A DNA stretch of 63,865 nucleotides, the filler included, from Reclinomonas americana ATCC 50394 (lineage: Eukaryota): the NCBI GenBank assembly GCA_048213135.1. It is 9 parts of 4 records of this genome, joined end to end, with 100 filler letters (N's around TTAATTAATTAA, not from the genome) between each part and the next. Parts side by side here need not be neighbours in the genome. Positions count along the whole stretch, not along the records: positions 27,457 to 34,059 come from PS015453.1; 8 more parts are not named here. One strand, 5' to 3'. Position 1 is the stretch's first letter. Each line of letters opens with the position of its first letter. Positions 6,526 to 62,422 of the stretch are shown here, in pieces. A model generated the notes under the pieces. The model saw nothing but the letters and a program-made list of their open reading frames with translations, was not told where the DNA came from and did no database searches. The position numbers were made by a program, and so were the translations under genes.

Positions 6526-6855
6526 GGCGCGTACTGGGGAGTAGAAAGAGCAGTCAGCGCTCTCTCTTCCCTTCAGGCGGCGCGCTTTGTTGGAGTGAGT
6601 GATCCCGCCAATTCCCATGCTCGCGGGTGTACAATACGTTACTGTACCGCAGGAACCCGCTCCAACTCACTCTCTTTGCTGATTCACACGCGCACTCTCA
6701 CACACACGCGTGCAAGAACGACAGAGAGATACGCGCGTAGGCGCACGGCGAATACCCATCTCTCTCGCGCGCGCGCGTCTCGTGTGTGTGATTTTGAGAG
6801 GCGAGCATAGAACGCGAGATCATTGCCTTATTCAGTGAGAGAGCGAGACTGTATT

Positions 6856-9800: not shown

Positions 9801-12800
9801 CGCGAGGGCCACTCGTCGACAGTGACGCTGCTGCTGGGCAAGGGCGCCAAGTGCAATGTGGCCGACTGCTGGGGCGAGACGCCGCTGCACTGGGCGGCCT
9901 TTCGTGGCCAGGACGACTGCCTGCTCGAGCTCGTCAACGCGCATGGAATTCAGTTGGAGGCCAAGGTAACTGCTACTAAAATGCACCACTGCTGGTGAAA
10001 GCAATCGCTCACTGCATGGTCGTGCGCAGGATATGGAGTCGAGCACGGCGCTGCACAAGGCGGCGTTCCGTGGCCACACGCGGTGCATTCACACGCTACT
10101 GGACAAGGAGGCTCTGGTGGACGCGCGTGACTCGGAGGGCAGCACACCGCTGCACAAGGCCGCCTACAAGGGTCACACCAAGTCGCTAGAGGCGCTGCTG
10201 GATCGCGGTGCCGTGGTGACGGCGGTGGACGAGCGGCGCATGACAGCGCTGCACAAGGCCAGCTTCCGGGGCAGTCTGTCGGCGTGTGTGCTGCTGGTCG
10301 ATCGTGGCGGAGCCGTCGATGCAGCGGCCGACAACAATGTGCAGCCGATCCACTTGGCGGCGCGCGCCGGTCACCAGCGCATTGTACAATTCCTCTTGGA
10401 GAAGGGTTGCTCGACAGAGGCGGCGGAGCTCGGCGGCGCCACTCCCCTCTTCGAGGCGGCGGCCAATGACCGCATCGAGGTCGCACGCTATCTTCTCAGT
10501 CGTGGCGCGCAGCTGGATGTGCGCACTCGCGACAATGAGTGGGTGCTGCATGCGGCGGCACGAGCGGCGAGCGGTGACATGATTCGCCTGCTGCACGCGG
10601 CCATGAACGAGCGACTGCGTCCTCGTCCCGGCCTCAACATGCGCGACCTCTCCGGCAACACACCATTCCTGGTGGCTGTCGACGCCGCCAATGTGGAGGT
10701 GGCCATGACGCTGTTGGAACTCGGCGCGCTGCTGACGGAGGACGACGTGGCGCACGCGCTTGTCGAGTCGGCACGTCAGGGCAATGTCGATCTGTGCCAC
10801 GCCATTATCCGCCACGTGCCACAACGACAGGACCTGCGCAACATTCTGGTGGAGGCCGCCCACGCTGCGGCGACGCACCGCGACACCAATTGCTTGGCGT
10901 ACCTACTGCGCGACTTCCCACACGTGGAGCGTGGCATCTCGGTGGCCGGTCGCACACTGATGGGAACGGCGGCGGCGCACGGCAGCCTGAACAATGTTCT
11001 CTTCCTGGCCGCGCGCAATCCCGACCTGGTCAATGCCGTCGACAGTCACTCGCGTGTTCCACTGCACTACGCCTGCGAGGCGCTCTCTATTGGTGCCTGG
11101 CGTAGCGATGGCGAGCCGACCGAGTCCACGTACGCAGAGATTGTGGCGGCGCTGCTGGCGCAGGGAGCGGTCACCAATGCGGCCGACAATTTCATGGACA
11201 TGCCGTTGCATGTGGCGTGTCGTCACAACCGCGCCATCAATGTGCACGCGCTGCTGATGCCGACGCAAGTCGGCACCATGGTTGACCCGCAGAATCGTGA
11301 AAATCGCACGCCACTGCACGACTGTGTGGATGCGCATGCTCTGGAATGTGCCACGCTCCTGCTGCAGTGCGGTGCCGATGCCGAGTTGTGCGACACATCC
11401 ATGTGCACGCCACTGCATTTGGCCGTGCGACACAACGACGTGGAGATGATCATGCTGCTGCTCGAGCGACGACCTGGCGGGCGTCTGCTCGGTTTGTGCG
11501 ACGGCAACGGTCTCACACCGCTGGAGTTGGCGTGCCAGATGCATCATCAGGAGGCGCTGGACGCTATTTTGCGTCCGCCATACGACCGCCTCGATGCGAA
11601 CGGCATGAAGCGGTTGGCGTTTGTGGCGGCACGCAGCGACAATGTGGTGGTGCTGAACCGGCTGCTGCGCCAGCTGCCTGACGACGAGGCGCAGTCGTGG
11701 TTGGAGCCCGACAATCTCGACAACTTGCTGCTCCACGCGTCTCGACACGGAGCCACCGAGGTGGTGAACGAGCTGCTCAACAGTGTGTCGACCAACGGTG
11801 TGGACTTGGCATGGGACACTCAGTTCCGCAACCGCAACGGCGAGAACGTGGCACACTTGGCAGCGCGCTCCAACAAGCCCGACTGCATGTCTGCACTGTT
11901 GCACCTGCCGCCGACGCGCCGGCCCGATTTCACGGCCGTCAACGAGCAAGGTCTGACGCCGCTGCTGCTGGCCATCTCTCTCGGACACACGGCCGTGGTG
12001 CGTGAAATGCTGCGTGGTGGCGGCAACGTGCCAGGCACCTCGCTGGCCGACATTCCGCCCGAGGAACTTGTGCGACGGGCGATTGAGGGTGGCCCAGAAA
12101 TGGTGGAGTACCTGGTGCGCGAACACAAGGTCAGCATCGCGCAGTTTACCGATGTCACCTCCGGCAACACGCCGCTACATTTGGCCGTGCTCGGCGAGAA
12201 TGTGGACAGGTGAGGGGCATGATGAGTGCGAGAGAGAGAGAGAGGCACGGTTGCGTATTGTGTCGTGTTACTCACTGATCACTGCATGGGCAGTTTGTTG
12301 CACCTGCTGGAAATGTGCAAGAACGACCCTTCGGTCGATGTGCGCTCGTTGCTGCGCATGCGCAACACCGAGGGCTACACGCCGGCCGAGCTGGCCATTC
12401 TTCACAAGCGCGCCGACATGCTGGATGCGCTGCTCAACTCGGACTGCTTGGATCCGTCGTCGCTGCCGGCGCTGCTGCACATGGCGTGCGAGATGGACTA
12501 CAACGACGGCGTGGCCACACTGTGTCTGCACCCGATTGACCTGAGCGCACCGAATGAGCGTGGCGAGACCGCCCTGCAAATCTGTGTGCGTCGCGGTTGC
12601 GTGGCCACCTGCGAGACGCTGCTGTCGGCCGACGCGTCCATGGAGGAGCGCAACGCCAACGGCCACACACCGATGCAGCAGGCAGTGGCTGAGGGCTTTG
12701 TTGACCTGGTGTTGCTCTTCAACGAGCGATTCCCGCACAAGCACATGGACGTGGACGACGATGGCCGCTCGCTGTTGCACTTGGCGGTGGAGCGCGGCGA

Positions 12801-15800
12801 CCGCAACATGATCACCGCGCTGCTTCGCCTCGGCTTGCAGATTGATGCGTACACGGATCTGCAGCCGCCGCCATTGCATTGTGTGGTGCGGCGACTGGCC
12901 GAGGCGCGCGACGATCCGCGCCAGCGGGCCGACCTTCTCAGTCTCATGCAGTTCCTCATCAACCAGTGCGGCGCGTCGGCCAACTCAATCGATCATCACG
13001 ACAAGAGCGCACTGCACACGGCGGCGGAGGCCGGCGACATTGAGGCCATTCGACTGCTGCTCGATCATGGCGCACTGGTGGACCAGGGGGTGGTCGACGA
13101 GGATGGCAACACGCCACTGCATGTGGCGTGTCGTGGCGGACATGACGAGTGCGCTCAGGCGCTGTGGTTTGCCGACGCGCAGTCGCTGCTCAACGAGAAA
13201 CAACAGACGCCGCTGTTAATGGCCGCCAAGTCCGGCAATGCCCACTTGGTGCGCTGGCTCGTGTCGGAGCCGGTCAACTCCGACTGCCTCGCGCAAGATC
13301 ACCGCGGGCGCTCGGCGCTGCACATTGTTGCCCACCGTGCCCACGTGGATGCGGCGGAGATTCTGGCCGACCTCACACCCATGCACCTCGAGGACATGGA
13401 CGCACAGACGGCCCTCGACATTGCGGAGAAGGAGCACGGGCAGGAGTCGGACATTTACCAAGTGCTGGCGCGCAAGGCGCCCATCATGGGCACCGACGAC
13501 ATTGACGACGCTCTGCAGGGCGCCGATGTGAATGGCGCCACTGGCGGCATGATGATGATGGAGGGCGAGGGCGGATTCGACGATATGCTGATGCCTGGTG
13601 GCGGCGGCGGTCGTCTCGGCCCGCGTGCCACCACCAACGACGATGCCTTTGATGAGGAGGCGCTGGCCGTGTCACTCCTGCAGGTAGCGGGACGTGCTGG
13701 TGCTGGCGGCGGTCTGGATGACGGCATGGTGGCGTCGCAGGCGCTCCTCGAGTACGACGACGATGGCGTGCTGGTCGACCTGTCGGCCTTCAATGCTGGC
13801 ATCGAGAAGGAGTTCACCGACCCCATTCACGCCCCGTCGTATCACAACGACGCCGCCGAAGTGCAGCGGCTGCTGCGTGCCGGCGCCAATGTGAACGAGC
13901 CAACCTCCACTGGCAACACACCGCTGCATCTGGCCATCCGTGGGCTCGCCCGCGACTCGTTCCGCGTGCTGCTGGAGGCCGGCGCGGACATTGATGCGCC
14001 GGGCAAGGATGAGCGCAGTCCGCTGCAGGATGCCTGTCGTGTGGGCAATCTGCCCATGGTGCAGGAGTTGCTGCGACGCGGCTGCGATCCGTCACATCGC
14101 GACGCCACGGGTCGCACGCCCGCACACGACGCCGCCATCGCCGGTGACCCTCGCATCATTGATGCGTTGGCGGCGGCCGGTGCGGTGCTCGAAGCGCAAG
14201 ACTGGGAAGGGCAGGCACCTATCCACTTGGCGGCCGGTCTCGGCAACCAAGCCGCAGTCAAGGCCCTCCTCCGTCATGGTGTGCAGGTGGACGTGCCGGG
14301 CTGTGTCGGCCACACCCCGCTGATGGAGGCCGTGCTGGGTGGTGCCGACGACAAGCATGCGGGAGTGGTGCGTGGTGTGGTCGCTGAGTGGTCGCCGGAT
14401 GTGAACAAGCAGGACGAGGCACTGGAGACGGTGTTGCATCACGCGGTGCGCGCCAACAACGAGGATATGACGCGCTACTTGCTCGAGAACGGGGCGAATC
14501 CGGATTTGCCGAACGAACAGGGTGTGACGCCACTGATCTTGGCCGTGCACGGCGGGAACCCAGCGTTGGTCAGCATGCTGCTCGACCACTCGCGCAATAT
14601 CAACGCTGTCACGGCACTCGGCACGTCGGCGCTTCACGAAGCCGTCGGCCGCAACGACACGGTCACCACCACGTTGCTGATTGATCATGGCGCTGATCTG
14701 AACGTGCAAGATCGCGACGGTCGCACGCCGTTGCATACGGGCGCGCGGCTACCGAACTGCACCGACGCTGCCATCCTGGTGGTGGATGCGGAGCCGACGG
14801 ACGGCCGTGCGCGCGCCCATCTCGATCGCACCGAAATGAACGGGTGGACGCCACTGCACCTGGCCTCCATCACCGGCGACGCTCGTCTGGTGACCCGTCT
14901 GCTGGAGCGTGGCGCTGCTGTCGATCCGGTCTCCGAGTATGGCAACACGCCGCTGCACTTTGCGTGCAAGCACGGACATGCGGCGGTCGCCGAGCTGCTG
15001 TTGCGCCATCGCGCCGATCCCAATGTGCGCAATCATCGCGAGGGCTGGACACCGCTGCTGGAGGCAGCCTCCAATGGGCACGCCGATTGCATCACGCTGT
15101 TGTTGCGCGACTGGAATGGCCGACGTGCCGACGTGAAGCATCGCGACAACACGACGACCACCGCACTCCACCTCAGCAGCAACCACGGTCACGAGGAGTG
15201 CGTGGATTTGCTGATTGCGGCTGGGGCGGAGCCGAATGCGCAAAACAACGACGCTCTCGCACCGCTGCATTGTGCCGCTCGCAACCAGCACGCCGGTGCG
15301 GTGCGGCGCCTGCTGGCGCAGGGTGCACAGGTGCGCCTGGCCGACAACGACGGGTGGACGCCGCTGCACTTTGCGGCGCAGGCCGGCTCGCCCGAGTGCG
15401 TCAAGGCGCTCCTCGACAAGGGTGCACGGCCGCAGGATGCCGACAAGGAGGGCACCATGCCACTGCATCTGGCCGCCCGCTGCGGCAAGGACGTGCTGCT
15501 GGATCGTCTGGTGGTGCCGCCGCCGCTGCCCAACGGCTCAACTGTGGCACCACTGGCGGGTGCAAGAGCAGCGGCCGCCGGTGCTGGCGTCGACTCCAAC
15601 ATTAATGCGCAGGGTCTGAACGGTTTGACAGCCTTGCACGAGGCCGTGCTGGCGGACTCGCCGTCGTGCGTCACCCGGTTGCTCGACATGGGTGCGAACA
15701 TTGATTCGCGGAATGCAGAGGTGAGGGGGGAAGGGAGAGGGAAGAAAGGGAAGGGGTGGGAGACGGGGAGAAGGGTGAAAGTTAGTGTGCAACGAGTGTG

Positions 15801-17690
15801 CAGCGAGTGTGAGAACGAGTGTGTAATGCCACAGGGGAGAGAGCGATTGAGAGACAGCGAGCGTTGACAGAGGCGCTCATCACTCTCCATTCGCAGGGAG
15901 CCACACCGGTGTGTCTGGCCGCCATCACCGGCAACTTGCAGTGTCTGGATCTCCTCGTCAAGCGCGGTTGCAATATCCACCTGGGCACCGAAGAGCGCAC
16001 CACACCGCTGCATCTGGCGGCTCGTGGCGGACACCTGGAGTGTGTGCGACGCCTGTGCCGTGCCGGTGCCGACACCAATGCACGTACCTACTATGGCGAC
16101 ACGCCGTTGCACGAGGCTGTGGATGCGTCGAGTCTCGACTGCATTCGGGAGTTGCTTGAGCATCGTGCCGACATCAAGGCCACCGACAACTGCAATGCGA
16201 CACCGCTGCACTTTGCCGTGCAGAATAGCGATGCCGATATTGTGGCGTACTTTTTGGATCGTGGTGCCACGGGTGCGCGTGTGTTGATGGAGCGTGGTGA
16301 TTCCGTGATGGCGCGTTGTCTCACTTGCCCTTGTGTGTGCAGGAGCCACGGATGAAATCAAGGACAACGACGGAAACTCGCTGGTCCACATTGTGGCACT
16401 CTCCGGCATGCATCGGCTGTTTGAGCAGCAGGTTGCCATCACCAAGGATGCTCTGCTGCTGACGAATAACAAGGGCCAGGTTCGTGATATGATTCAGGGT
16501 GGATGGGATACTCTGTCTCTCTCTTTCTCTCTCCCTACTGCTCATCTCACGCGCTCTGTGCCCTTCTTGTGTACATCCCAGTTGCCACTGCACATGGCAG
16601 CAATTGCCGGCAAGACCGACACGGTGGAATATCTGGTGCGCCGCATGAAGACACACGGACTGAGCATCGACATTCGCGACACAGACAACGCCACGGCCAT
16701 CTACTACGCGGCGCTCAGTGGCCACCCGGACACGGTGGATTTGTTGGCACGCGAGAAGGCCGATCTCGACAATGTGCGCGACAAGGGCGGCATGTTGCGT
16801 TATTATTTCCGCACCTCGTGCTCCCCCAAGTTTGGTGCTCATCTTTTTTTGTTGCGGCAGTCACGAACGCGCCGTGTCGCCACCGCTGAGTCCCATGTCG
16901 CCATCCGGCCGCAGCGGTCGCAGTCAGCCCCGTCGATCGACCTCGGTGCTCGGGCAGTCGGCCGCCGCCTCGCTTGATGCACGCAATCCTCTGTACGCCG
17001 CTGCTCTCGGTGGGCAAGCAGCGGTGGTGGCCGTGCTGCTGCACCACCGGGCCAGCATATTCAAGCTGGGCTCTGAGCAGCGCACGGCGTTGCACGCGGC
17101 GGCCATCGCAGGCAAGGTGGAAGCGCTGCAGCACTTTGCCGAGGTGGACGTACGACGGTGGATCAACGAGGGCGATTTGGAGAACGAGACACCGCTGCAC
17201 TACGCCTGCGTGCAGGGTCACGTGAATGTGGTGCGGTGGTTGGTGCAGCACGGAGCCGACGTCAATCGACTCGACTCGTACCTGTGCTCGCCACTGTACG
17301 AGGCGTGCTTGGAAGGTGAGAGTGTGTGTATGCACATGGAAAGTACGGAGTGAGAAGCGGTCGCTAATCATGCACGCACCAGGCAATGTGGACGTGGTGC
17401 GCTACCTTACGCAAGACCAGGACGTGCGCAACCTCGATCTAGATGTGCAGGATTGCAATGGGTACTCGGCGCTGCATGTGGCCGCCCAGCAGGGTCTCAC
17501 CGATGTGGCGCGCTTGTTGGTCGCCGCCGGTGCACGCACCGACATGCCCAACAAGGACAGGTTAACGCCGTTGGAGATTGCCAAGTCGCGCCAGCGGCAA
17601 GGTGTCATTCTGGTGCTGGAGAATCAACGCGGGCGCGGTACACCTGTGCCCACCACACCCTCCCGAGGCTCCTCCAGTCGAAGAAGATGA
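6856..17690 (+). CDS. Giant ankyrin-repeat protein (~3,290 aa, 13 exons by eye)
   Basis: Dozens of TPLHxAA/GxxxVxxLLxxGA repeats across ORFs 6887-17690. Approximate exons: 6856-6885, 6971-8320, 8385-8544, 8611-8876, 8937-9648, 9709-9965, 10030-12209, 12294-15720, 15896-16272, 16343-16478, 16582-16793, 16861-17315, 17383-17690, joined by GT-AG introns. Confidence 0.92.
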
Positions 17691-22776: not shown

Positions 22777-23348
<572 letters not shown>

Positions 23349-27248: not shown

Positions 27249-28016
27249 AGAGAGAAGAACAGAGACGACGAGAGAGAAGAAGAGAGAGAAGAGAGAGAGA
27301 GTACTACACGACGACGTAGTTCGACTACGTTTCCCCGTTTTCCCCCTACCGACCGTNNNNNNNNNNNNNNNNNNNNNNNNNNNNNNNNNNNNNNNNNNNN
27401 TTAATTAATTAANNNNNNNNNNNNNNNNNNNNNNNNNNNNNNNNNNNNNNNNNNNNAGAGGAGAGAGAGAGAGAGGGAGAGGGAGAGAGAAAGGAGCAAG
27501 TCAGGAAAAGTGAGACACGAAGAAACACAGCACAGAGAGCGAGAGAGGACACACACACAAGGAGCACTTCAGCAAGCAAGACAATGGAGAAGGAGCTGGA
27601 TTGAGAGAGAAAGGATAATCTCTCATTCGCATGTCGACTGCTCACTGATATCTCCTCCCTCTTGCTCCCTTCGAGGGAGCGCGAGGGGGAAACGAGAGCA
27701 ACTGCTCAATGATAGTCGCTGCCTCGCTCACTTCATTGCTTCTCTTTCTCTCTTCTCTCTTGCTCCTTCGAAGGAGCGCGAGCGAGAAACAGGTAACTGT
27801 TGACAGTCCCTTTTCATTACTTCTCTCGATCTCTCTCGCCTTCTTGCGTTCCTATCGGGTTCTCTTGACGTTGCTCTTTCTCTCTCACTCTCTCTCTCTC
27901 TCTCTCTGACTCGCTCCTTTTCGTGAGGCGTGAGGGGGAAACATGCAACTGCTGATAGTCTCTGCCTCTTAGTTCTCTCTCTTTCTCCTCGCTCGCGTCA
28001 TTGTTTCTCTCGTTCT

Positions 28017-28069
<53 letters not shown>

Positions 28070-28779
28070 CTCTTCTCTCTCCTCCTCCTCCTCCTCCTNN
28101 NNNNNNNNNNNNNNNNNNNNNNNNNNNNNNNNNNNNNNNNNNNNNNNNNNNNNNNNNNNNNNNNNNNNNNNNNNNNNNNNNNNNNNNNNNNNNNNNNNNN
28201 NNNNNNNNNNNNNNNNNNNNNNNNNNNNNNNNNNNNNNNNNNNNNNNNNNNNNNNNNNNNNNNNNNNNNNNNNNNNNNNNNNNNNNNNNNNNNNNNNNNN
28301 NNNNNNNNNNNNNNNNNNNNNNNNNNNNNNNNNNNNNNNNNNNNNNNNNNNNNNNNNNNNNNNNNNNNNNNNNNNNNNNNNNNNNNNNNNNNNNNNNNNN
28401 NNNNNNNNNNNNNNNNNNNNNNNNNNNNNNNNNNNNNNNNNNNNNNNNNNNNNNNNNNNNNNNNNNNNNNNNNNNNNNNNNNNNNNNNNNNNNNNNNNNN
28501 NNNNNNNNNNNNNNNNNNNNNNNNNNNNNNNNNNNNNNNNNNNNNNNNNNNNNNNNNNNNNNNNNNNNNNNNNNNNNNNNNNNNNNNNNNNNCGACGTAC
28601 GACCTTCCTTCCTTCTTACGTTCGTTCGTTCGTTCGTCGTCGTAGTACGTCGTCGTTCGTGTGTGTCGTCTCTCTCTCTCTCTCGTCGTCGTGTTCGTTT
28701 CGTTCGTTCGTCTCTCTCTTCTCTCTCTCTCTCTCTCCTCCTCCTCCTCTCTCTCTCTCCTCCTCTCTCTCTCTCTCTC

Positions 28780-28820
<41 letters not shown>

Positions 28821-29092
28821 CTTATCGCTCCCCCCCTCAGGACCCGGAGGACGAAGAGGCCGTCAAGGACTGGCGTGCGGCACTGAACCCGCACTCGGAG
28901 GTCGTGCTGCACGGATGCATGGTGGAGCCGGCGCTGGCATCGGTGGCGCCCAACTCACTAGCCCGTTTCCAGTTCGAGCGCATCGGTTTCTTTGTGGTGG
29001 ACTCGGACTCGACACCCGACAGGTTGGTCTTCAACCGCACCGTCGAGCTGAAGGAGTCGTACCCGAGGGGCAGCGTGGGCACGTCAGCTTGA
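23730..29092 (+). CDS. QARS: Glutaminyl-tRNA synthetase, eukaryotic type; 5' exons missing in the gap
   Basis: [27 protein letters not shown] (HIGH motif), [46 protein letters not shown] (KMSKS-like), [19 protein letters not shown] and [20 protein letters not shown]. Confidence 0.96.
25740..26280. repeat. Degenerate tandem repeat in a GlnRS intron
   Basis: gtggcgagcagtgagtgcgagtgagcgagatcggccatctc at ~25839 and ~26135, plus repeated gaagctgggtg units. Confidence 0.75.
26345..26410. repeat. 15-bp minisatellite (cttcagctcttcccc)n
   Basis: About 4 tandem copies seen directly. Confidence 0.85.
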
Positions 29093-29207
29093 ATGTGGTG
29101 GTGATGAGTAGAGAGAGTTTGTGGATGGCAATGAAAATGAATGCAGAAGAAAGGCGAGTTGGTTGTTGTTGAGCTTTCTGTGAAGAGAGAATGCAGTCGA
29201 TGAAGCA

Positions 29208-29346
29208 GCAGTTCTTCCGCGCGTGGAGGCCATCGGCTGTTTCGGATCAAGCTCGACCTGCAAAAGGCGTTTCTGCCTCGCAGTGAAAGAGAGCAGCGGC
29301 GCCACCGGCTATTCCGGAGCAGTGAATGTGTGGGGCGTCTAGCTCA
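29208..29346 (+). pseudogene. Degenerate partial copy of the tRNA-Ala upstream unit, ending in the tRNA 5' fragment ggggcgtctagctca
   Basis: Matches 29393-29468 (cagttcttccgcgcg, gcagcggcgcc, ggctatt..ggag, gaatgtgtg, ggggcgtctagctca) but breaks off in the D arm. Confidence 0.75.
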
Positions 29347-29394
29347 CCCGTTCTGATGAAGCAACACGGTGTGCGACCTCAGGGAAAGAGAACA

Positions 29395-29538
29395 GTTCTT
29401 CCGCGCGCGGAGGGCAGCGGCGCCGTCGGCTATTTTGGAGTAGAGAATGTGTGAGGGGCGTCTAGCTCAGTTGGTAGAGCGCTTGCTTAGCATGCATGAG
29501 GTCACCGGTTCAATTCCGGTGTCGTCCACTCCTTTTTT
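29395..29538 (+). repeat. Left arm of a 144-bp inverted repeat (partner 33754-33897)
   Basis: Reverse-complement match with one visible mismatch (tagagaatgt vs cagagaatgt). Covers about 60 bp of leader, the tRNA and the oligo-T terminator. Confidence 0.93.
29456..29528 (+). tRNA. tRNA-Ala(AGC)
   Basis: Cloverleaf with acceptor GGGCGTC/GTCGTCC-A carrying the G3:U70 Ala identity pair, A-box TAGCTCAGTTGG, anticodon AGC at 29489-29491, B-box GGTTCAATTCC and a downstream oligo-T Pol III terminator. Two U-U stem mismatches. Confidence 0.93.
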
Positions 29539-29784
29539 GTTTTTTGTTTTTTTCCTTCTCTCTTCTTCTTGCACACGCATGTGGGTTCGTTGGACTGGTG
29601 GTATGTATATATGAGCAGAACCTGTGAGTGGATGGATGATGGAAAGGCGATGAGCAATTTTCCGATTTTCGATTTCGATCGATCGCGGTATCGAAATGAG
29701 TTTTTGCTGTTTCTTGACGGGAGGCCCTCGGCATTATCACCCCAAGACAGAAGATCTAAGTCTTGACACGCTGAGGAGAATGAT

Positions 29785-30092
29785 GCCTCCACTGCATGCG
29801 TACGCTTTGCAATCGCTTGCTTCATAATCACGGATGCGGACCCGGCTTTGCTTTGTTTGCCTGGCTTATGGCCTTTCCCCAAATTCGATGTGCCGTGTAT
29901 GATCGCAGGATACGCTACGCGTCAATGCAAGTGCGTCAAATCCACTGGTCAACCACGCTTATGCGGTGAAGATCCTCGACTTGTTCGGAGTTCCGAGAGC
30001 GAACACAAGGAACCTGCTGCTGTCTCAAGATTGGTGTTTGTGTTGATGTTTTGAATACGGTTGAACTTGGTCATCAAGACAGGTGTTGCTTG
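29785..30092 (+). repeat. Dispersed repeat, copy 2 (rearranged)
   Basis: Same-strand similarity to ~20973-21220. The segment caagcaaca.ctgtcttgatgaccaagt (21104-21132) appears inverted at ~30064-30092. Confidence 0.8.
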
Positions 30093-30260
30093 TCGTGGCG
30101 GGGAAAGCTGCGGGCTGCAAAGCAAAACCAAACGTACATTTTGCATCACATTCATACATAAGATCATAAGAGAGAACGCAACAAGACACGAGACGAGAAC
30201 GTCTTGCCTCTCCATCCAACAACAACAACGCAAACACAAAACATCCACCTCCACCACCAC

Positions 30261-33094
30261 TTACTCTTCCTCTCCCTGCCCCTCTCCCTCCCCTCCCCCC
30301 ATGCTCCTCGGCAGCTTGACGCCCGTCATATTCGCACCCGTAAAATCCGCCTCCTTCGCAAACGCCAGGCTGATATTCACCCCTCGTAGATCCGCCCCGC
30401 GCCACACCGTCCTGTGCATCACCGCATCCCTCATATCCGCACCGCGCACTCGCACACCCGACAGATCGCGCCCACCGAATGACACCTGCGCCAGGCACAA
30501 CACCGTCGCCGCATTTGCTGCGGCCGTCACCACGCGCTCCTCGTCCACTGCCCGCGACATCTCAATCACCTCCCACAGCCTCGCCTGCAGTCGAGAGGAC
30601 CAGCGCACCACCTCGGCTAATTGCCGCAACAGTGACGGTCGGTCGTTGAGCAGTCGCACGGCCAGCACGTGCTGCTGCACGTCTTGCATCGTCAGCCGCC
30701 GCCCGTCGTCCCACACCTTCCACGCGTAGATGTAGCGCACCAGACAGTGCTCCAGCAACGACAGGTGCACGAAACCCCACTGGTCGGTGCCGAATCGGCG
30801 CACAATCGGGCAGCACACTCGCACATGCTGGTTCTTGGGGCCGAGGAACTTGTCGAACGGGCCCTCGACTCGTCGACTGGCAAGCGGCGCGCCGCCGAAA
30901 TCATCCTCTTCCGCGCCGCCGTCACCCGACTGACTGTCCCGCACAGACACACGCACCATATTTTGCTCGTGCATCAAGCGTGCCAATCCCTCGCAGAAGG
31001 AGAGGCACGTCTGCTCGTTCGGCACACGCTCGGCGCCAAGGCGCATCTGCCTCTCCTGCTCCCGCTCAATCCACAGTCGAATGAAGCGGTCGAATACGTC
31101 GTACTGCGTCACTCGATCACCTGCCACCAACTGCGGCAGCACACGGGCCACCACTGAGAGGAGGTACGGATTCGACACCAAGGCCTCCAATCCGCCAACG
31201 CCCTCGAGTGCGCGCATGTACTCTGCGGCTGTCGACCAGTGCGTCGCACCGTCACCATCACCGTCACCATCGCCGGCCACTTGCACCAGCCGTTCAAAGT
31301 ACTCCTCAATCTGCTCCTTGCTGAACGGTGCAATGTATCGCTCGACAAGCTGCTGCATGCACAACTGTCCGCGTGCATCCACCGGTGCAAAGTATTGTCG
31401 GTACTGCGTCGCGCCACCCAGCGCCGTCAGTGCGAAATCGCTGCGGCAAGTGATAATCATCTTCACGTCGCGGCAGCTGTCCAGCCGGTTCTTGACGAAC
31501 AGATTCACACCACGATGCAACTCGTCGTACCCGTCCAGCAGCAACAGGAGCGGCTGCTCCTTCAGCCGTCGCACATCATCATCGATGCATCCCATCTCGG
31601 GCGACAGTCGCTCCACTGCCTCCTCCAGCAGTCGCTCGTCGGCATTGTGCAGAGCGCCAAGAGGCACACGCAGAGGCACTCGTCGACTCTCCCTCGTCTG
31701 CCACTGTCGCCACGCTCGCTCGGCCACAATGGACATGGTGGTGGTCTTGCCGGTGCCACTGTTGCCAAACAGCACCAGTACGCGGTGAGTGCTGTTGGCG
31801 TCAGAGAGGAATGCATCGACTTCCGTCAATAGATCCACGGTTTCACCAGGATCGCGCTCTCGCGAGCACAGCAGTGGCACATACATCTGCATGTCCTTGC
31901 GTGCACTCTCGTCGTGCTCGTAGAACGAGAGCTCACGCACAGCCAGTCGATGCAGTCGCTCCTCGAATGTGTCCATGCCATGCTGGAAATCACGTGCCTC
32001 ACGAATGCGAGCGGCAAACTGCACGTACTCGTCGGCCGTCAAGCGCAGTCGAGCAAGGCTGGAGAGGAAGACGCCCTCGTCACCCAAGAAGCGCTCCACG
32101 TTGATGTCTGACAACTCGTTGTGGAACACCAGCTCGTTTCGAGCGTGTCGCAGATGCTCTATCGCCTTGCGCTCGTCTGCGTCGTCCAGCAGCAGCAGTT
32201 TGCGACCGTCATCCTCAACAAAGCCGCCGTACAGCAGGATCGACGCCATGGCCGTCACATCGAGACCGTCACACGGAGGGTCGGAGGAGGGGTCGGTGTC
32301 AAAGGCTGCGCGCCACGCAAGCACCTGCACATGCACCTCCTTGAACAGCTTGACTCGCGCGGGGTAATGTGGTGCATGCCGATCACGCCACGCCTTGACT
32401 GCCACCGCATCCATGTCGGCGGGCCCGAAGCTCGACACCCACGCCCGCACGTCAAAGGCGGGGTGATCGCGACTGAATTGCGCCAGTGCGCGCTGGCAGC
32501 GCAGACGCACGGCTTCGAGGACGACCTCGAAGACCATGAGGTGGCGGACGTAGTTCATCATCCTGCAGTGTGTGCACAAGCAGACTATTTCAGTACACGC
32601 GGTGGGGGCGGGGGGCGGGGGGGAAGGAAGTAGGGGAGGGAAACGAACTGAGCGGTTCGGTCCGTGGCACTGCATGCAAGGCAATGTTGGAGAGTCAGAA
32701 AATACTCTCTCCTCTCTCATCCAATGCACGCACCTTCCACTCGGCGCCGCTGCTGCTGCGCCACCAAGCGTCAGACGGACAACGAGATGAGTCGCCGAGT
32801 TGATGCCGAGTGCATGCAGCGGCACATCCGTGGCTCCCATGTCGAACGGCGCAGGCTTCTCCACTGCCACAATCTCCACCCCCTCATCTCCACTCTTCTC
32901 ACGCAGCAAGCGAGTGGCCTCGCGAAGCAGCTCGGCTAAAGTGGACGCGGCCGACAGGCCCTCCACCATCACCGACAGCGACGAATCATGCGCCGCACTC
33001 ACGTGCACAGAGAACTGTGGGGTGTGCGTGAAATATGAGCATGGAAAAAAGAAGGGGAGAGTGCGGGGTGAGGGGCGGAAGAACTCACCGACAT
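30261..33094 (-). CDS. NLR-like protein: ubiquitin-like N-terminus, HEPN-like domain, NACHT NTPase, pentapeptide repeats
   Basis: ATG at 33094 with intron 33088-33015, two further short introns, then a 2.3-kb exon 32562-30261. Walker A LFGNSGTGKTT, Walker B LLLLLDGYDE, IITCR, NPYLL. AAANAATVL precedes pentapeptides (RDLSG/ADMRD/ADLRG/ADFTG). HEPN-type motif LDVT..RNELVFH. Ubl-like segment ends LVVRLTLGG. Confidence 0.85.
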
Positions 33095-33413
33095 GGTGTG
33101 TGTGTGTGTGTTCTGAAGCAGTCTTCTCTCACGAACGAATGCAAGGGAAAAAGCAGTGTGTTGTCGGCCGGGTTTCGTGTGAGAAGCTGTCATCGCAGTG
33201 GCGGAATTCGATTGCTGTCGTCGGACAGGCGTGGCTTGCGCGTGGAGCAGACGACGCACGGGGCTGATGTCGGGAAGGAAATGCGCAGACGCATAGCAGC
33301 ACGACAAGTGGGGGACGATTTGGGGGACGCCTTCAAACTCGATCGCGACGCGACTGCAGTAAGTCGAACTCCGGCGACCATCTTTTTTCTTGTCGCGCCT
33401 GCGAGCGAAGAAC

Positions 33414-33707
33414 ATGTCTCACGGCAATGCTGGATATCGCATCAAGAACCTCCGAGGAACTTCTGGCTGTACGCATTATCGTGGCCTCGAGGCCTCATCA
33501 GTCAGCACGACAAAGTGCGCTGTCAACGGATGCAATCGCGATGCGACCCGGGCGTGCCACGTGATCGCAGCGAACCAGAGCGCTGCGTCCGGCCGTCGCA
33601 AGATCGTGTACATGTGCCCGAGTCACAATGGGCTCTACGAAATCCACAACATCCGAGCGAATGCTTTGACATACGAGCTGGATGACTGCGGCTGTGGTGA
33701 CGAGTAG
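33414..33707 (+). CDS. Small Cys/His-rich protein (97 aa), possible His-Me finger/HNH-like zinc-binding fold
   Basis: ORF MSHGNAGYRIKNLRGTSG...CAVNGCNRDATRACHV...IVYMCPSHN, with a Cx4C...HV...CxxHN pattern. Confidence 0.55.
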   Translation: MSHGNAGYRIKNLRGTSGCTHYRGLEASSVSTTKCAVNGCNRDATRACHVIAANQSAASGRRKIVYMCPSHNGLYEIHNIRANALTYELDDCGCGDE

Positions 33708-33753
33708 CGCTGCGTTCATCTCTGTCAGTGAAGAAAAAGAAAATAAAAAACCA

Positions 33754-33897
33754 AAAAAAGGAGTGGACGACACCGGAATTGAACCGGTGACCTCATGCAT
33801 GCTAAGCAAGCGCTCTACCAACTGAGCTAGACGCCCCTCACACATTCTCTGCTCCAAAATAGCCGACGGCGCCGCTGCCCTCCGCGCGCGGAAGAAC
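33754..33897 (-). repeat. Right arm of the 144-bp inverted repeat
   Basis: Reverse complement of 29395-29538. Confidence 0.93.
33764..33836 (-). tRNA. tRNA-Ala(AGC), identical second copy in inverted orientation
   Basis: Exact reverse complement of 29456-29528, followed by an oligo-T terminator on the minus strand. Confidence 0.93.
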
Positions 33898-34318
33898 AGT
33901 GCTGCTCCTTGCGAGGCCTCCAGCGCCAAGAGCAGCACGTCCAGCGAGGCAGAAAGGTCTCTTGCAGAGTGTCATGATCAGTTGCATCAGATACTAACTG
34001 GTATTCTCTGCATTCTTGCGTTCATTGGTCAGTGCGTTTGCAGTTCGCGTGCACGTAAGNNNNNNNNNNNNNNNNNNNNNNNNNNNNNNNNNNNNNNNNN
34101 NNNTTAATTAATTAANNNNNNNNNNNNNNNNNNNNNNNNNNNNNNNNNNNNNNNNNNNNAGGAGTCGGGAGAGGGCATTGGTGGTGTGGAGCAGGATTCA
34201 TTCACCACACCGACCTCCAAGGGCGGCAATCGCGGCAAGCCTGGGGTTCGTCTTGATGTTGTGCATTGTGGCGTTCTGCTGTTCCTTGCATTCATCACAA
34301 TGATTCATCCGTACGCAG

Positions 34319-37300
34319 CCCACCAGCGCTGTCGCCAAGGCCGAGCAGCGCAGGCAGACGCGTGAGATGTTCAAGGCCAAGTACGAGGCCCTGGAGGCAC
34401 GTCGACCAGGCGAAGAGTTGAGTCCTCTCTTTGTTTGTCAACCAGTGTGTGTGGGCGGCAGTGAGCTTATACAGTGGTGGCGCTGCGCAGCTACGAGGAT
34501 CCGCGCGATGCCACAGCCATTGCCTACGCAGAGCGTAACAAGGGCGATTTCAAGCTGAAGGAGGATCCGGCGTATGTGGTGCCCGAGCATCTGCGTGTGA
34601 ACGCCGAGAAGAAGCTGCGACAGATGATTCTGTTGGAGGAGAGCATTTACACACTCAAGATGGTACGCTGTGCCTGCCGCATGTGTGTACGTGTGCATGT
34701 TGCTCATGTAGAAATTCGTGCAGGATTTCAATGAGCGCTTCCTGGCGTTGCGTGATCTGAAGGAGCGCATGATCCGACACATCCAAGACGACATGAAGGA
34801 GATTCAGCGCATCAACGAAGAACTCGGTTTGCCGTCGGATGCTCCGCTGCTGGAGACCACCGAGTCACACGATGATGAGTATCCCGAGCGCCGCACCGAC
34901 TACACGCGCGACGACCTCGTGAAATTCGAGAAGCGCCGTGCTCGTGAGCAGAAGGCTGCGGCCCGTGCTGCACGCTCGGGCGGTGGTCTTGGCCTTGGCG
35001 GTGGCGGCGGACACGAGAGTGACGAAGAGGACGACCACGAAGAGGAGCAGGATCAGGCCGGCAAGTCGGGCGCGGCGGCCGCGGGTGCCGCTGGCACTGC
35101 AGGCGCCGGTGCTCCGTCCGTCACTGGCACAGGGCCAGTGGCCTCGATGGCGGGTTCGGCGGCTCAGACGGGCGGCACGGGCCAGCCACCACCACTGCTC
35201 AAGACACTTGGCGATGCCGGATCGATGCTGGGCTCGTCTGCCAGTTTCACACTCAATCGCTGTGCGTTACCACACCACTCTGCATGATTCGGCCATCTCG
35301 CGTGTGACTCACACGTGTTCTCTTTGTGTTCTGCAGCGGGTACGCAGCGCAGCTTGCGATCCAACAAAAAGGCCACCACCAAGAAGGAGATCACGAGGCT
35401 GCATAACCTCGAAGCCCTTCGTCGAGAGCGATTGACGCGTGTGGAGACTTCAGAGCTGGAGAAGGTCGAGCGCACCGTGTACGTCTCCACGTTGATCAAC
35501 AAGAAGGAGCGCCTGATTAGCGTTGCGTCTCATGCTTTCTTGTTCACTTGAACGCTGAGTGCAACTGCGCTCACTTCGGCTGTGTTCGAATAACAGAAAA
35601 CCAAACGCACCATCACCACGTTTGACACGGCGCTCGAGGAGCTGTACGTGGAGAAGCTGAAGTTGGAGGCTGGTACGTAAGCCACCAGTCGAACAAGATA
35701 CACACACTCTCACCCACGAGCAGGCACTGACTTGAGAGTTTCTTTTTTTGGCAGATCTCAAGACCACTGACCTCAAGATCCTTCTCTTGTACCGCGAGCT
35801 GGTGCTGCTGAAGGATTTGGAGAAGAATGACCGCGAGTTGGCCATGTTGTTCGAGAAGCAACGACAGGAGAAGCTCAACCTGAGCCTCAAGGTGTGTGCT
35901 GCTGCCAAAACGATTACAACAGTTCTTCAGTTCTCAAACCTCTCTCCAGATGGCCGACTGCGACGACCGCCTCATGGACAAGAAGCGTGAGCTGGAGGAC
36001 ATTTTGTCACGCGAAAAGTCGATCATCTCGGAGATGACTCGGTTGACGGAGAAGGATGCGGAGAGCGAAGGCAGCTTGTCACTGTGGAAGATCTTCCGCA
36101 AGAAGGTGAAGCGCGTGAAGAAGACCGAGGGTGGCGACGTGGACGAAGAGGAGGACGACGACGACTTTGACTTTGACAACTTTGACGACTTTGAGGACGA
36201 GGACGAGGAGGAAGAGGAGCACTGCCCGGATGGTGTGTCGGAGGAGACGTACCAGCGTGTGCTGCAGCTACGCGAGCAGAAGCTCGATGAGGAGGAGCGA
36301 CTGGCCGAGTTCTACACGTCGATGCAGGGTCTCAAGCGTGAGCACGATGACTATGTCAAGAGAGACACGGCGGTCGACGCGGCTCTGCAGGAGACCGAGG
36401 CCAAGATCCAAAAGTTCCAGACTCAGAAGCAGAAGAAGCTCAACGAGCTCTTTATTACGGTGTGTGTGTGCTGCTGCTTTGTTTTTGCGTCTTGCCACTG
36501 CTGACACTCCTGCTTCCCACATAACAGGTGCCACTGAAGATCGATCAAGTGCAAAATCTGATGGAGGGCAAGTTCCCATCCAAGGACCTCAGCACATCGA
36601 TTGTGTTTACGCGCAATGCCCTGCAGGCACTGCACCAGAGAATACGAGACCTGGTCAAGGTACACCACACACGCTTTGCAATGCTTCTCCATCATCGCTT
36701 CGCTCTCGTACTCACCTGCCTCTCTCTAACAGGAAAAAGTCGAGTTGATGCGTCTGCAGAAGCGGTTGGTTCGCGAGTACCGAGCCAACCTCAAGGTGCA
36801 GGAGGAGAAGCAGCGTGAAGTCGAAGCGTTGCGTCTCTTTTGTCATGTGTTTGTGTACTCCTGCTCCAATAGTCTGACTGACCGTCACCACAGAATCGAA
36901 GCCAAGGTGGTGGAGGTGCAGCTGATGCGCTTTGGCCAAACTGTGAATCTCGAGGACCTCGACAAGGCCGAGTTGGACAGTGCGTCGGAGGATCTGCGTG
37001 CAGAGATTTCTGAGCTTGAAAAGGCGCAGCAACGGCAGCTGCAAAAGTGGGAGGTGAGTTCCCCCCNNNNNNNNNNNNNNNNNNNNNNNNNNNNNNNNNN
37101 NNNNNNNNNNTTAATTAATTAANNNNNNNNNNNNNNNNNNNNNNNNNNNNNNNNNNNNNNNNNNNNACTGGAGAAGGACTTGCAGACGAGCGAAGTCTCA
37201 GTGGTTCGTGATTCTTCTCCTCTCCGTGAGCGAGTGACGCAAAAGAGAACTGACCCGTCGCTCCGCGCAGATGAAGAAGCTGTTTGGCGATCGCGAGCCT

Positions 37301-40273: not shown

Positions 40274-40494
40274 GAAAAATGTAAAGTGTTATTGGCGCGA
40301 AAAAAGCTGTCTCCCGCCAAAAAATCTCATTATCGCGCACATGCGGGGGGGAACTTTGCTCTCAGTGGCACTGCCACTGCTGTTGCTGTTGTTNNNNNNN
40401 NNNNNNNNNNNNNNNNNNNNNNNNNNNNNNNNNNNNNTTAATTAATTAANNNNNNNNNNNNNNNNNNNNNNNNNNNNNNNNNNNNNNNNNNNNG

Positions 40495-42490: not shown

Positions 42491-45400
42491 GATGGCGATC
42501 GAAGAAGGTCAACAGCGAGTTGCGGGACAAGCTTCCACTTGCAATTCTCAATCACCTTTGCGCGTCGTTGCTGCTGTTCTCGTGCACTCGCCATCGCGCG
42601 AACAGCGCACGCTTCCATCACCTTTGCGAGCGTGCCTGGCCCACGCATCACACCGATCGCAGACGACCGCGTGACACTCTGTGTGCGCGCGCGCTTGCGT
42701 GTATAGAGTACGATGAGCGAGCACGTGCGCGAGGCCCTGGATGCCAGCAGCGACAGTGGCGACGACACGATCCATGTGCTGTGGTGGCGCTCTCATCGAC
42801 TCGCAGCGCGCGCCAACCGCATCATGGCACTGCATGTCAGTTGCGCGCATTCATTCATTCATTCACACAAGAGAGAGAGAGACAGAGAGAAATGCCCAGA
42901 CTCACGCTTGACGCACACAGCACCCGACGACACACGTGCCGACTCACTCAGTGAGAAGCGCGGCGTGGCCAACCTCGCTGTCAGCGTCATGTCGCCACCG
43001 AGTGAAGTTGCATTCAATGATGATCAACAACGCTTTTGGCGCTTGGGCTCTTCCTGACAGCACCATCGCCGCAGAGTTCACTGGACGAGTGTCTGCGCGC
43101 ATGCGAAGCGTACGTGGAGACCAGTGTGACGTGTGGCGCACTGGCGCGCTTGACCTACCGGCGGGCGTGGCTGGAGAGCGAGTTTGAACGACTGATGCGA
43201 TGGCTGGCCTCGTGTGTGCCCACGCGCGGTCACAGCGCCGGCGCAGTGACACTGGAGGATGATGAGTCGTTCCAGATGAGCAAAGAGCGTTGCGTTTGTT
43301 GCACGCTCCACGCACTCCACGTTCCCTGTCTGCAGATTCCCTCCCTCACATCGCCATTGACAGACGATGAAATGGATCGTGTGGAGATGGTGAGGCTGAT
43401 GGCCTCGGCGCGTCTCGAGTTCCCCGCTCTGTCGCCATCGGCGGTGCCATTGTCGTCATCGCCGCTGGCGCCCATGTTCCAGTCGACGGAGACGGTGATT
43501 GGTGCGATTCGACCTTGCCTGCTGAGTGCATGCGATGGCGTGTTGCGGGAGCAGGTTGTCGAGTTTCTGCTCGAGGTGGCGGCCATGGTGAGTCGTGACG
43601 GCATGATGAGCCAGGCGATCGAGGCGGTGTGGGGCGAGTTGCACGAAAGTTGCGCGTGCGACAGCTGCTATCCGTGATTTTCGATATCGCTGACTTGTTA
43701 CTTCTTGCAGAGGTCGATTCGGATCCAGTCGCTGTGCGACGGTCAGCGCGTCTATTGCTGGCCGACGGCGACACCGACACCGCCACCACGCTGTACCGCA
43801 AGGCACTGGAGTTGTTTGATCATAATTTGGGTGGGGCGAATATCGAGACACTGCGCACGGCAGAGGAGCTGGCAGACGACGTGTGGCGCAGATTACGGCG
43901 GTTCGATGAGGTGAGTGGATGGAGGGAGAGAAAGGGGAGAGAAAGAATGGCTGTGTCACTTTCTCCACCATGATGGCAGTGTCTCGCACTGGATACGACG
44001 TCGGCACGCATTCGTCATGTTGCGTGCACTGCCACCCCGTGCTGTGCGCATTGTTCCTCACTGTCGACTCTATGTGTGCCACGCACAGCAACTCTTTGGT
44101 GACATGCATCCGTCGACGCTGAATCGCATGTACCATCTCGGCAACGACCAGTTGAATCTTGGTGCTGCAGAGGACGCTCTCCAGATTCACGGTGCGACTG
44201 CTGCGCGATCCATGCACTCTCTTGTGTGATTCGCGCTCTCTCATCGCGTGTCAAATATCACCTGTCGCAGAGTCGACGCTGCGTGCACGTCGAGAGGTGC
44301 TGGGTCCCAAGCATCGCGACACACTGCGCTCGGTCCACGCAGTGGGCTCTGTGTACATGCGCCTCGACGACTACTCGCAGGCGATATCCTACTTTGAGGA
44401 ATGTGTGCAGGGCCGAATCGAGGTTCTCGGCAGCGATGCAGTCGGTGCGTGGTCGCCCGGCTCCCGTGGGAAAAGTACAGGGGTCTGCTGACACTGTGTA
44501 CACAGAGACGCTCGGTGCCATGTGCAATCTGGCCAATTGTTTGGATATGATGGGTGTGCACGAACGTGCTGCCGATCTGCATCGTCATGTGTGTACAGTT
44601 CGACAGCAAACGCTGGGTGACGATGATCCACTGACTATTGCTGCCATGCACAACCTGGCACTGGCACTCACGCGGGCGTCGCCACACGAGGCCGCTGCGC
44701 TGCATGCCGCCGTGCTGGAGACGTACGACAAGTCGTTTGGCGTCGACAGCGACGAGTATCTGGCCGAGGCCACGTCGCTCGCCAACGTTCTCTCGCTGCT
44801 CAACCGGCACCAGTGCGTGTTCGAGATGGAGTCTTTTCTTTTCTCTCTCCCGCCACGTCCTCAAGCGTGTGCTTGGCGATGCAGGGACGCGTTTGCGTTG
44901 CACACCAAGGTCTACGACTCCATGATTCGTACGCGCGGTGTCGACCATCCGTGGACATGTGGCGCCCTCAACAACCGTGCCCTGGCTCTGGATGCCATGT
45001 CACGCCACGAGGAAGCAGTGGTACTTCATCGCGAGTGTCTCGAACGACGACAGCGACTGTTGGGGCTGGAGGCGCCGGACACGCTTTGGTGGGTATTGTG
45101 TGTGTGTGGCTTCTGAGTTGTCGTCCTGTGTTGACACTTTTGCGGCGCGCAGGTCCATGGCAAACCTGGTTCGCTTGTCGAACTACACGTTCATTCTCTG
45201 TGCACACATGCAATGCTAATCATGGTGGCACGCTGCAGGGTAATTCATTATTTGCACTTGGACGGTATGACGAGGCTGCCGAATTGTACGACGCATGCCT
45301 GTCGGAGCGGAAACGGCAACTTGGCCCGCGACATGAGCACACGTGAGCATACATTTTGCTGTCGTTTTGTTGTTGGAGCACATGTCGGACTGATTCCACT

Positions 45401-50413: not shown

Positions 50414-50572
50414 CTGCACATGCATGCATGAAATGATGAGTTGAAGATGGAAAATCATCATGGCCTTTGTCGNNNNNNNNNNNNNNNNNNNNNNNNNNNN
50501 NNNNNNNNNNNNNNNNTTAATTAATTAANNNNNNNNNNNNNNNNNNNNNNNNNNNNNNNNNNNNNNNNNNNN

Positions 50573-62259: not shown

Positions 62260-62422
62260 CTGCAGCGGAGAGAGACATGAGAGGGGCAACAGGTCAAAGA
62301 AGCATCGATCGACAAGAGCCCGNNNNNNNNNNNNNNNNNNNNNNNNNNNNNNNNNNNNNNNNNNNNTTAATTAATTAANNNNNNNNNNNNNNNNNNNNNN
62401 NNNNNNNNNNNNNNNNNNNNNN

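Follow-up and report, generated by a model that had tools for sequence, protein, structure and literature searches.

Why do two almost identical tRNA-Ala(AGC) genes face each other across an NLR-like gene and a small conserved gene in the genome of Reclinomonas americana ATCC 50394? The locus lies at positions 29395 to 33897 of a 63,865-nt stretch of DNA from assembly GCA_048213135.1, which was analyzed as a whole and is referred to here as the window. A preliminary description interpreted it as an accessory, immunity-like island for which tRNA genes served as the insertion site or as the partners of a recombination that could invert or move it, resembling prokaryotic defense islands. Our results suggest a different history, in which copies of a tRNA-Ala(AGC) gene were probably born and lost at a single locus and the present pair goes back to a recent inverted duplication or to gene conversion.

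The repeats that bracket the interval are 144 nt long, lie 4215 bp apart in inverted orientation and are identical at 143 of 144 positions (29395–29538 versus 33754–33897), the sole mismatch being located at 29441, where the left arm has a T and the right arm a C. They comprise the following elements:

29395–29538, + strand: left arm, with a 61-nt upstream region, TATTTT at 29431–29436, the tRNA gene proper at 29456–29528 and a first T6 terminator run at 29533–29538
29456–29529, + strand: left tRNA-Ala(AGC) gene (ARAGORN, Rfam)
33754–33897, − strand: right arm, an inverted copy of the left unit, with TATTTT at 33856–33861, the tRNA gene proper at 33764–33836 and a T7 run at 33753–33759
33763–33836, − strand: right tRNA-Ala(AGC) gene (ARAGORN, Rfam)

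ARAGORN detected exactly two tRNA genes in the window, both of them tRNA-Ala(AGC), and these two genes converge. Each copy scores 60.4 bits against RF00005 in Rfam (gathering score 29) and carries the anticodon agc according to ARAGORN, together with a G3:U70 pair (G3-T70) that was read from the sequence. The 61-nt leader is common to both arms except for one base and includes the TATTTT element, which is situated at −25 to −20 relative to the tRNA. Each tRNA contains an A box (TAGCTCAGTTGG) and a B box (GGTTCAATTCC), and T6 or T7 runs begin 4 nt past either gene. Because TATTTT, the two boxes and the T runs are present in both copies, each arm appears to represent a whole RNA polymerase III transcription unit, whose activity is predicted from these signals. 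These observations bear out the preliminary description of 144-bp inverted arms with one mismatch, each of which holds a leader, a tRNA-Ala(AGC) gene and a terminator. Arm identity stops sharply at either side, and a looser complementarity (95% over 164 nt) reaches 29389–29552 and 33740–33903. The flanks directly outside the two arms do not match, starting with the immediately adjoining bases, so that there is no target-site duplication, and the 64-kb window contains no further copy of the arm. On the + strand, the T-rich terminator tail of the right tRNA gene reads AATAAA at 33742–33747, 35 nt past the stop codon of the small protein gene, and this stretch may terminate transcripts of both strands.

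Evidence for older copies of the same unit comes from the region between the stop codon of the glutaminyl-tRNA synthetase (GlnRS) gene and the left arm. Here, two decayed direct copies of the tRNA unit (29204–29346) had previously been overlooked, and a segment from the outer flank of the right unit recurs among them:

29204–29237, + strand: relic A, a decayed direct copy that covers the beginning of the leader, together with 7 nt of the right unit's flank outside the arm
29289–29346, + strand: relic B, a decayed direct copy of the remaining leader and the first 14–15 nt of the tRNA
33944–33967, − strand: outer-flank box of the right unit, which recurs in the relic region at 29258–29281 (21 of 24 nt)

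In local alignments with the right unit, relic A reaches a score of 45 (against 33906–33871; maximum of 23 in 200 shuffles) and relic B a score of 78 (against 33882–33823; maximum of 27 in 200 shuffles). Relic B is truncated inside the A box and is therefore a dead gene. The two relics are ~85–88% identical to the tRNA unit, as opposed to 143/144 identical positions between the arms, which bears out the earlier suggestion of a recent duplication or ongoing homogenization. Together, the relics and the recurring 24-nt box therefore point to a layered history of copying one unit at this locus. At the position of the arm mismatch, the C is common to the right arm and relic B, suggesting that the left arm holds the derived base.

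We consider it probable that these features arose through the birth and death of tRNA-Ala(AGC) copies in one place. The locus would have undergone several rounds of local duplication at the DNA level, in which the duplicated unit was a putatively complete polymerase III transcription unit of ~145–165 bp that comprises a TATA-like element, a gene containing the A and B boxes, and a terminator formed by a T run. Just 3′ of the GlnRS gene, two old direct copies would since have decayed, with one intact copy remaining next to them and a second intact copy, in inverted orientation, coming to lie 4.2 kb away. Either one of the intact copies may have been derived recently from the other, or gene conversion may keep both of them alike; the direction and the mechanism of copying are thus deduced from sequence relationships. 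The two protein genes, in turn, would be resident nuclear genes that were bracketed by chance, not the cargo of a mobile element.

The preliminary description correctly recognized the enclosed genes as a divergent pair. They lie 319 bp apart and show the following features:

30261–33094, − strand: NLR-like STAND NTPase gene, identified from the listing of open reading frames (ORFs), an inferred splice model and its relatives
31290–31784, − strand: NACHT NTPase domain (PF05729, E 3e-10, 40.6 bits versus a cut-off of 26.7; Pfam)
30312–30488, − strand: short C-terminal pentapeptide-repeat region (PF00805, E 6.7e-8; NCBIfam pentapeptide models)
32121–32141, − strand: RNELVFH (Rx5H) motif, a candidate HEPN active-site motif within the N-terminal 250-residue region
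33414–33707, + strand: gene for a conserved 97-aa Cys/His protein, without intron (18 homologs)

Several lines of evidence speak to the question of whether this interval is foreign or mobile. The GC content at third codon positions (GC3) of both genes is within the range of their neighbors, with values of 0.74 for the NACHT exon and 0.66 for the small gene compared with 0.67–0.71 for GlnRS and 0.74–0.78 for an ankyrin gene; the comparison leaves out the control frames GlnRS_last and ORF50525, which are out of frame. Pfam revealed no recombinase, integrase or transposase domain in either of the two enclosed genes or in five further ORFs of the interval, in agreement with the earlier remark that neither a transposase nor a target-site duplication is visible. 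There is also no direct repeat of the 3′ part of the tRNA at the far end of the interval: the repeats are inverted whole units, and the sole partial copy is a 5′ fragment. Neither the NACHT gene nor the small gene recurs elsewhere in the window. The arrangement as observed is real and non-random, but the analogy with an island inserted at or moved via tRNA genes is not supported, since it fails on the recombinase, the direct 3′ tRNA repeat, the target-site duplication and the composition, and since the NACHT gene has inferred introns. The statement that the enclosed genes are intron-poor compared with their neighbors did not prove distinctive either, because the ankyrin gene in the window has an open exon of 3.6 kb.

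The frame of the NACHT gene is open throughout 30261–33128 (−). Based on GT-AG sites and the reading frame, the gene is predicted to consist of exon 1 (33089–33094), an intron (33015–33088), exon 2 (32734–33014), a second, in-frame intron of 171 nt (32563–32733) and exon 3 (30261–32562), which includes the TAA stop codon. The NACHT domain contains a Walker A motif (GNSGTGKT, 31743–31766) and a Walker B motif (LLLLLDG, 31530–31550), both on the − strand. The protein ends just past the short pentapeptide stretch, without a beta-propeller, and a tblastn search of the adjoining region (29530–30260) with 16 WD40-bearing relatives revealed no WD40 repeats after it. In the window, likewise, neither paralogs of the NACHT gene nor remnants of WD40 repeats were present in its vicinity. 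A WD40 signal at 49.6–50.5 kb was considered as a remnant of the NACHT gene and rejected, as it belongs to a generic WD40 gene.

A HMMER search of 1.84 billion representatives yielded 5112 relatives of the NACHT protein at E ≤ 0.001, 1222 at E ≤ 1e-10 and 265 at E ≤ 1e-30, and a word-indexed protein search with the NACHT exon gave no match. The top match is a 178-aa ORF of R. americana derived from an expressed sequence tag (EST), with 81% identity over ~147 residues; among the named relatives, this jakobid EST is the closest. The subsequent matches, which are ~30–37% identical, are proteins of Mortierellaceae fungi or derive from metagenomic contigs. Domain make-up was determined for 20 of the 150 relatives listed. 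Among these 20, at least 16 have WD40 repeats and at least 8 pentapeptide repeats, and the N-terminal modules include ARM_5, TIR and protein kinase domains; the relatives P0003, P0026 and P0043 resemble the protein of the window in that they are without WD40.

The preliminary description had assigned a Ubl-HEPN-NACHT-pentapeptide architecture to this protein. Its NACHT and pentapeptide parts were confirmed by Pfam, but the two N-terminal assignments were not. The Ubl domain has no Pfam match at E ≤ 10 and no ubiquitin-like chain among the matches of a search of PDB sequences; the exon-2 peptide, which terminates in ...HLVVRLTLGG, resembles a ubiquitin tail by eye only. The N-terminal 250 residues gave no Pfam match at E ≤ 10, and a search of PDB sequences with the N-terminal 260 residues and the exon-2 peptide returned chance matches only, mostly to designed helical proteins. 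The nearest Atlas clusters of the N-terminal 250 residues are HEPN_Swt1 (0.81) and HEPN_DZIP3 (0.79), which lie below the 0.9 level and provide a lead only. In combination with the Rx5H motif, they make a HEPN effector domain possible.

The second enclosed gene encodes a 97-aa protein that belongs to a conserved family. Of 21 candidate homologs, 18 were retained at E ≤ 0.01, with identities of 50–72% and lengths of 93–134 aa. The family shares 14 invariant positions (C35, N38, C40, R46, A47, C48, H49, N54, G60, R62, Y66, C68, N72 and C92). An AlphaFold model of the protein (AF2, from the alignment; pLDDT 77.8) shows a small beta-rich domain. Within it, strand 49–53, strand 62–66 and helix 69–72 form a segment that bears the invariant C48-H49 and N72. 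The strand-strand-helix arrangement at 49–72 in this model, which carries an invariant His and an invariant Asn, would agree with a His-Me finger, and the HNH-like identity proposed in the preliminary description may be regarded as a guess. The gene itself is real and conserved, as shown by its 18 homologs. HNH models in Pfam and PHROGs were matched by none of the 19 family members. Moreover, no credible family match for the protein was obtained in Pfam, PADLOC, NCBIfam or PHROGs. Its model found no match at E ≤ 0.001 in the pdb and viral libraries of Foldseek and, in a VIA-wide fold search, reached a best Z of 3.1, to unrelated small barrels. A comparison of its profile with PDB sequences gave only a chance match (E 0.63). 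The 97-aa protein thus defines an uncharacterized family without family assignment or recognizable fold.

The genomic contexts of this family bear on the question of whether its gene travels with tRNA or NACHT genes. A metagenome scan matched 33 stretches, 9 of which encode a relative of the 97-aa protein; based on identical proteins and ORF layouts, they represent six distinct loci (L001; L002 = L003; L004 = L005 = L006; L007; L008; L009). Including one weak viral match, none of 10 loci contained a tRNA gene within ~6 kb per side. Similarly, no NACHT protein is encoded by any of the 17 scanned ORFs that neighbor the relatives in six loci (L001, L003, L004, L007, L008 and L009), which argues against the island reading. 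The neighbors include a TPR protein in L001 and a HAD hydrolase in L007. In L003 (1837–6275; the contig, identical to L002, spans 112 kb), two adjacent ORFs of 670 and 810 aa adjoin the 97-aa relative and encode GBP-like GTPases (PF02263), representing the single further co-occurrence of the family with NTPase-type immune genes. In L004, the small gene is preceded by GGAGG and accompanied by a HlyD-ABC-MacB operon and an amidase, giving the appearance of a bacterial operon. The family thereby spans both eukaryote-like and bacterium-like contigs. A first scan of 185,579 prokaryote species genomes found no member of it, and a second prokaryote scan, with a bacterial-type member as query, produced just two spurious matches of 13–16 residues.

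Several points weigh against a purely local history of tRNA gene copying around resident genes. As far as the NACHT protein is concerned, its relatives are mostly from Mortierellaceae fungi, accompanied by metagenomic proteins with prokaryote-style annotation, and the small gene also occurs in the bacterial-looking operon of L004. In view of these outside affinities, an old acquisition of either gene is possible. The symmetry of the locus is also tidy for pure chance, with each protein gene running outward toward an inward-pointing tRNA gene. In addition, a survey of tRNA genes (tDNAs) defines tDNA clusters at <1 kb (PMC2888827), whereas the members of this pair are 4.2 kb apart.

Among the alternatives, the one that survives best is that of an invertible segment, in which recombination between the 144-bp arms would flip the 4.2-kb interval and attendant gene conversion would keep the arms identical. 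Either orientation restores both tRNA genes, so that inversion would come at no cost, and a flip would swap the protein gene that faces GlnRS. The idea is consistent with near-perfect inverted arms 4215 bp apart and with the observation that identity is limited to the unit while the older copies decayed, which fits ongoing exchange. Furthermore, a short-read draft leaves the orientation between inverted repeats unresolved, and this assembly is fragmentary, with 20 N runs in 64 kb. However, the arms are short for efficient recombination, and the sequence reveals no functional difference between the two orientations, as both genes carry their shared promoter region along. We therefore consider an invertible segment unlikely.

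A function of the tRNA pair as a boundary appears still less likely to us. According to this proposal, the two polymerase III units could act as chromatin barriers or polymerase II roadblocks, which would insulate the divergent NLR-like gene pair from GlnRS and the right neighbor and help to end the outward mRNAs. Its appeal lies in the geometry, since both protein genes are transcribed toward inward-pointing tRNA genes, whose intact A and B boxes give predicted TFIIIC sites, and in the AATAAA that the right tRNA terminator supplies on the mRNA strand of the small gene, 35 nt past its stop codon. Nonetheless, the argument is one of position alone: the 3′ untranslated region of the NACHT mRNA would measure ~730 nt and contain neither AATAAA nor ATTAAA, and the other loci of the small gene are without tRNA genes.

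A further alternative, which we regard as very improbable, is an assembly artefact: in a draft as fragmentary as this one, a faulty join at a tRNA repeat present in multiple copies could have produced the inverted arm or misplaced the interval. It can be judged from the neighboring genes and joins:

28838–29092, + strand: last exon and TGA stop codon of GlnRS (PF20974 tRNA-synt_1c_C2, E 5.3e-10 over 28838–29089)
34060–34159, no strand: join, N44-TTAATTAATTAA-N44, 163 bp outside the right arm, overlooked in the preliminary description
34769–36504, + strand: C-terminal third of CFAP44/FAP44 (PDB sequence matches)

The left anchor of the interval is solid, because the last GlnRS exon, whose stop codon occupies 29090–29092, lies on the same contig as the left arm, and upstream GlnRS exons match PF00749 and PF04557. 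The right-hand neighbor, by contrast, is uncertain. Searches of PDB sequences matched residues ~1214–1292 of a 1843-residue CFAP44 chain (E 1.4e-4) and residues 1729–1922 of Chlamydomonas FAP44 (E 7.1e-25), and the sequence past the join (34160–36504) is without the first ~1200 residues of CFAP44. Since the gene is cut to its last third at the join, at least ~3.6 kb of its coding sequence must be in the gap or misplaced. The TTAATTAATTAA between the N44 runs looks like a six-frame-stop contig-join linker, and neighborhood across such joins is putative. An artefact would be in keeping with the 20 N runs of the window, the linker-like TTAATTAATTAA only 163 bp from the right arm and the start of the sequence past the join in the last third of CFAP44. 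It is difficult to reconcile with the fact that both arms and the interval reside in one unbroken contig (28593–34059) with unique sequence at either side, and that a single base and unequal T-run lengths set the two arms apart. Moreover, the right flank shows an old, diverged similarity to the relic region, which is not something that an artefact creates.

As for the remainder of the window, 16 of its N runs form eight 44-N pairs spaced by 12 nt, at 34060–34159, 22984–23083, 27357–27456, 37067–37166, 40394–40493, 50473–50572, 52865–52964 and 62323–62422. Long CT/TC microsatellites (28006–28096 and 28653–28820) flank a 494-N gap in the last GlnRS intron and are probably the cause of this break in the assembly. 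A very large ankyrin-repeat gene at 6839–16977 (+) has open exons of 529, 436, 747 and 1213 codons, which are full of Ank repeats. TPR_10/TPR_12 repeats of the NPHP3 type, a kind that often trails STAND NTPases, are found at 44103–45346 (+), with no NTPase domain in the upstream ORFs scanned.

One may also envision the tRNA pair and its contents as a functional module. In this view, the polymerase III units would provide insulation for, and from time to time invert, a divergent gene pair that encodes a HEPN-NACHT sensor and a widely conserved 97-aa zinc protein, the latter acting with immune sensors of the NTPase type; the GBP-like GTPase genes beside its relative in L003 would fit such a role. 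We give this combination only a slim chance; if it were true, the locus would represent, in a eukaryote, the equivalent of compact defense systems made of two genes, with tDNAs as its boundaries.

Least credible of all is the proposal of the preliminary description, according to which an immunity island that is mobile or was acquired horizontally has inserted at a tRNA-Ala gene, for although relic B ends within the tRNA (position 14–15), as though an older tRNA gene had been disrupted, although both enclosed genes have relatives in bacterial-type contexts and although several bacteria-to-eukaryote transfers of NACHT genes have been reported (bioRxiv 10.1101/2022.07.19.500537), the interval lacks the hallmarks of integration discussed above, shows no 3′ remnant of a disrupted tRNA in the 163 bp up to the contig end, has native-like GC3 and inferred introns in its NACHT gene, holds two genes that are not linked in six other loci of the small gene, as judged from 17 neighboring ORFs, and includes a gene whose 81%-identical relative is expressed in R. 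americana.

Returning to the birth and death of tRNA-Ala(AGC) copies as the preferred explanation, the locus would provide a clean case of this process and of concerted evolution from a protist lineage that has been sampled poorly. It also cautions against seeing prokaryote-style islands in eukaryotic tRNA pairs. Apart from the repeat, the analysis has brought to light an NLR-like gene of the NACHT-pentapeptide type, possibly equipped with a HEPN effector, from a lineage in which such genes have hardly been described. The most interesting residue of the analysis is the uncharacterized 97-aa Cys/His family, and these by-products may outweigh the repeat itself.

How does this locus compare with systems described previously? 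In essence, it is a locally duplicated tDNA pair together with a NACHT-pentapeptide STAND NTPase gene, both of which are of already-known kinds. Prokaryotic tRNA-anchored islands are characterized by a tyrosine or serine integrase and by direct repeats of the 3′ end of the tRNA. The present locus shares with them an immunity-type STAND NTPase gene that adjoins tRNA genes, but it differs in the absence of a recombinase, the inverted arrangement of whole tRNA genes, the eukaryotic host and the introns in the gene. A second point of reference is the tRNA-Ala gene at cen1 of S. pombe, which is reported to serve as a chromatin barrier with orientation-independent activity (Scott et al., 2007; PMC2040200). 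Here, too, a tRNA-Ala gene with intact internal promoter elements is found at the edge of a domain; the likeness to the cen1 barrier is positional only.

The NACHT protein has its own set of counterparts. STAND NTPases with a NACHT module are described as combining repeat sensors with enzymatic effectors, and HEPN RNases are listed among the effectors in their variable N-terminal region (Kibby et al., bioRxiv 10.1101/2022.07.19.500537; Kaur et al., 2020, PMC7159879). The protein encoded in the window conforms to the architecture outlined there, with a NACHT core carrying Walker A and B motifs, a pentapeptide repeat that follows the NTPase module, and an N-terminus of the variable type. Unlike most of the scanned relatives, it is without a beta-propeller and has an N-terminal region without a profile match.

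The closest parallel to the repeat itself is provided by homogeneous tDNA pairs, which occur in parallel and antiparallel arrangement, and with pseudogene debris, across eukaryotes (Bermudez-Santana et al., 2010; PMC2888827). As in the pairs described in that survey, two close genes of one isoacceptor family are found at this locus, with tRNA pseudogene fragments beside the functional copies. In contrast to the clusters considered there, which are defined at distances of less than 1 kb, the pair analyzed here spans 4.2 kb, encloses two protein genes and has retained, as part of the copied unit, 61 nt of upstream sequence in addition to the tRNA gene.

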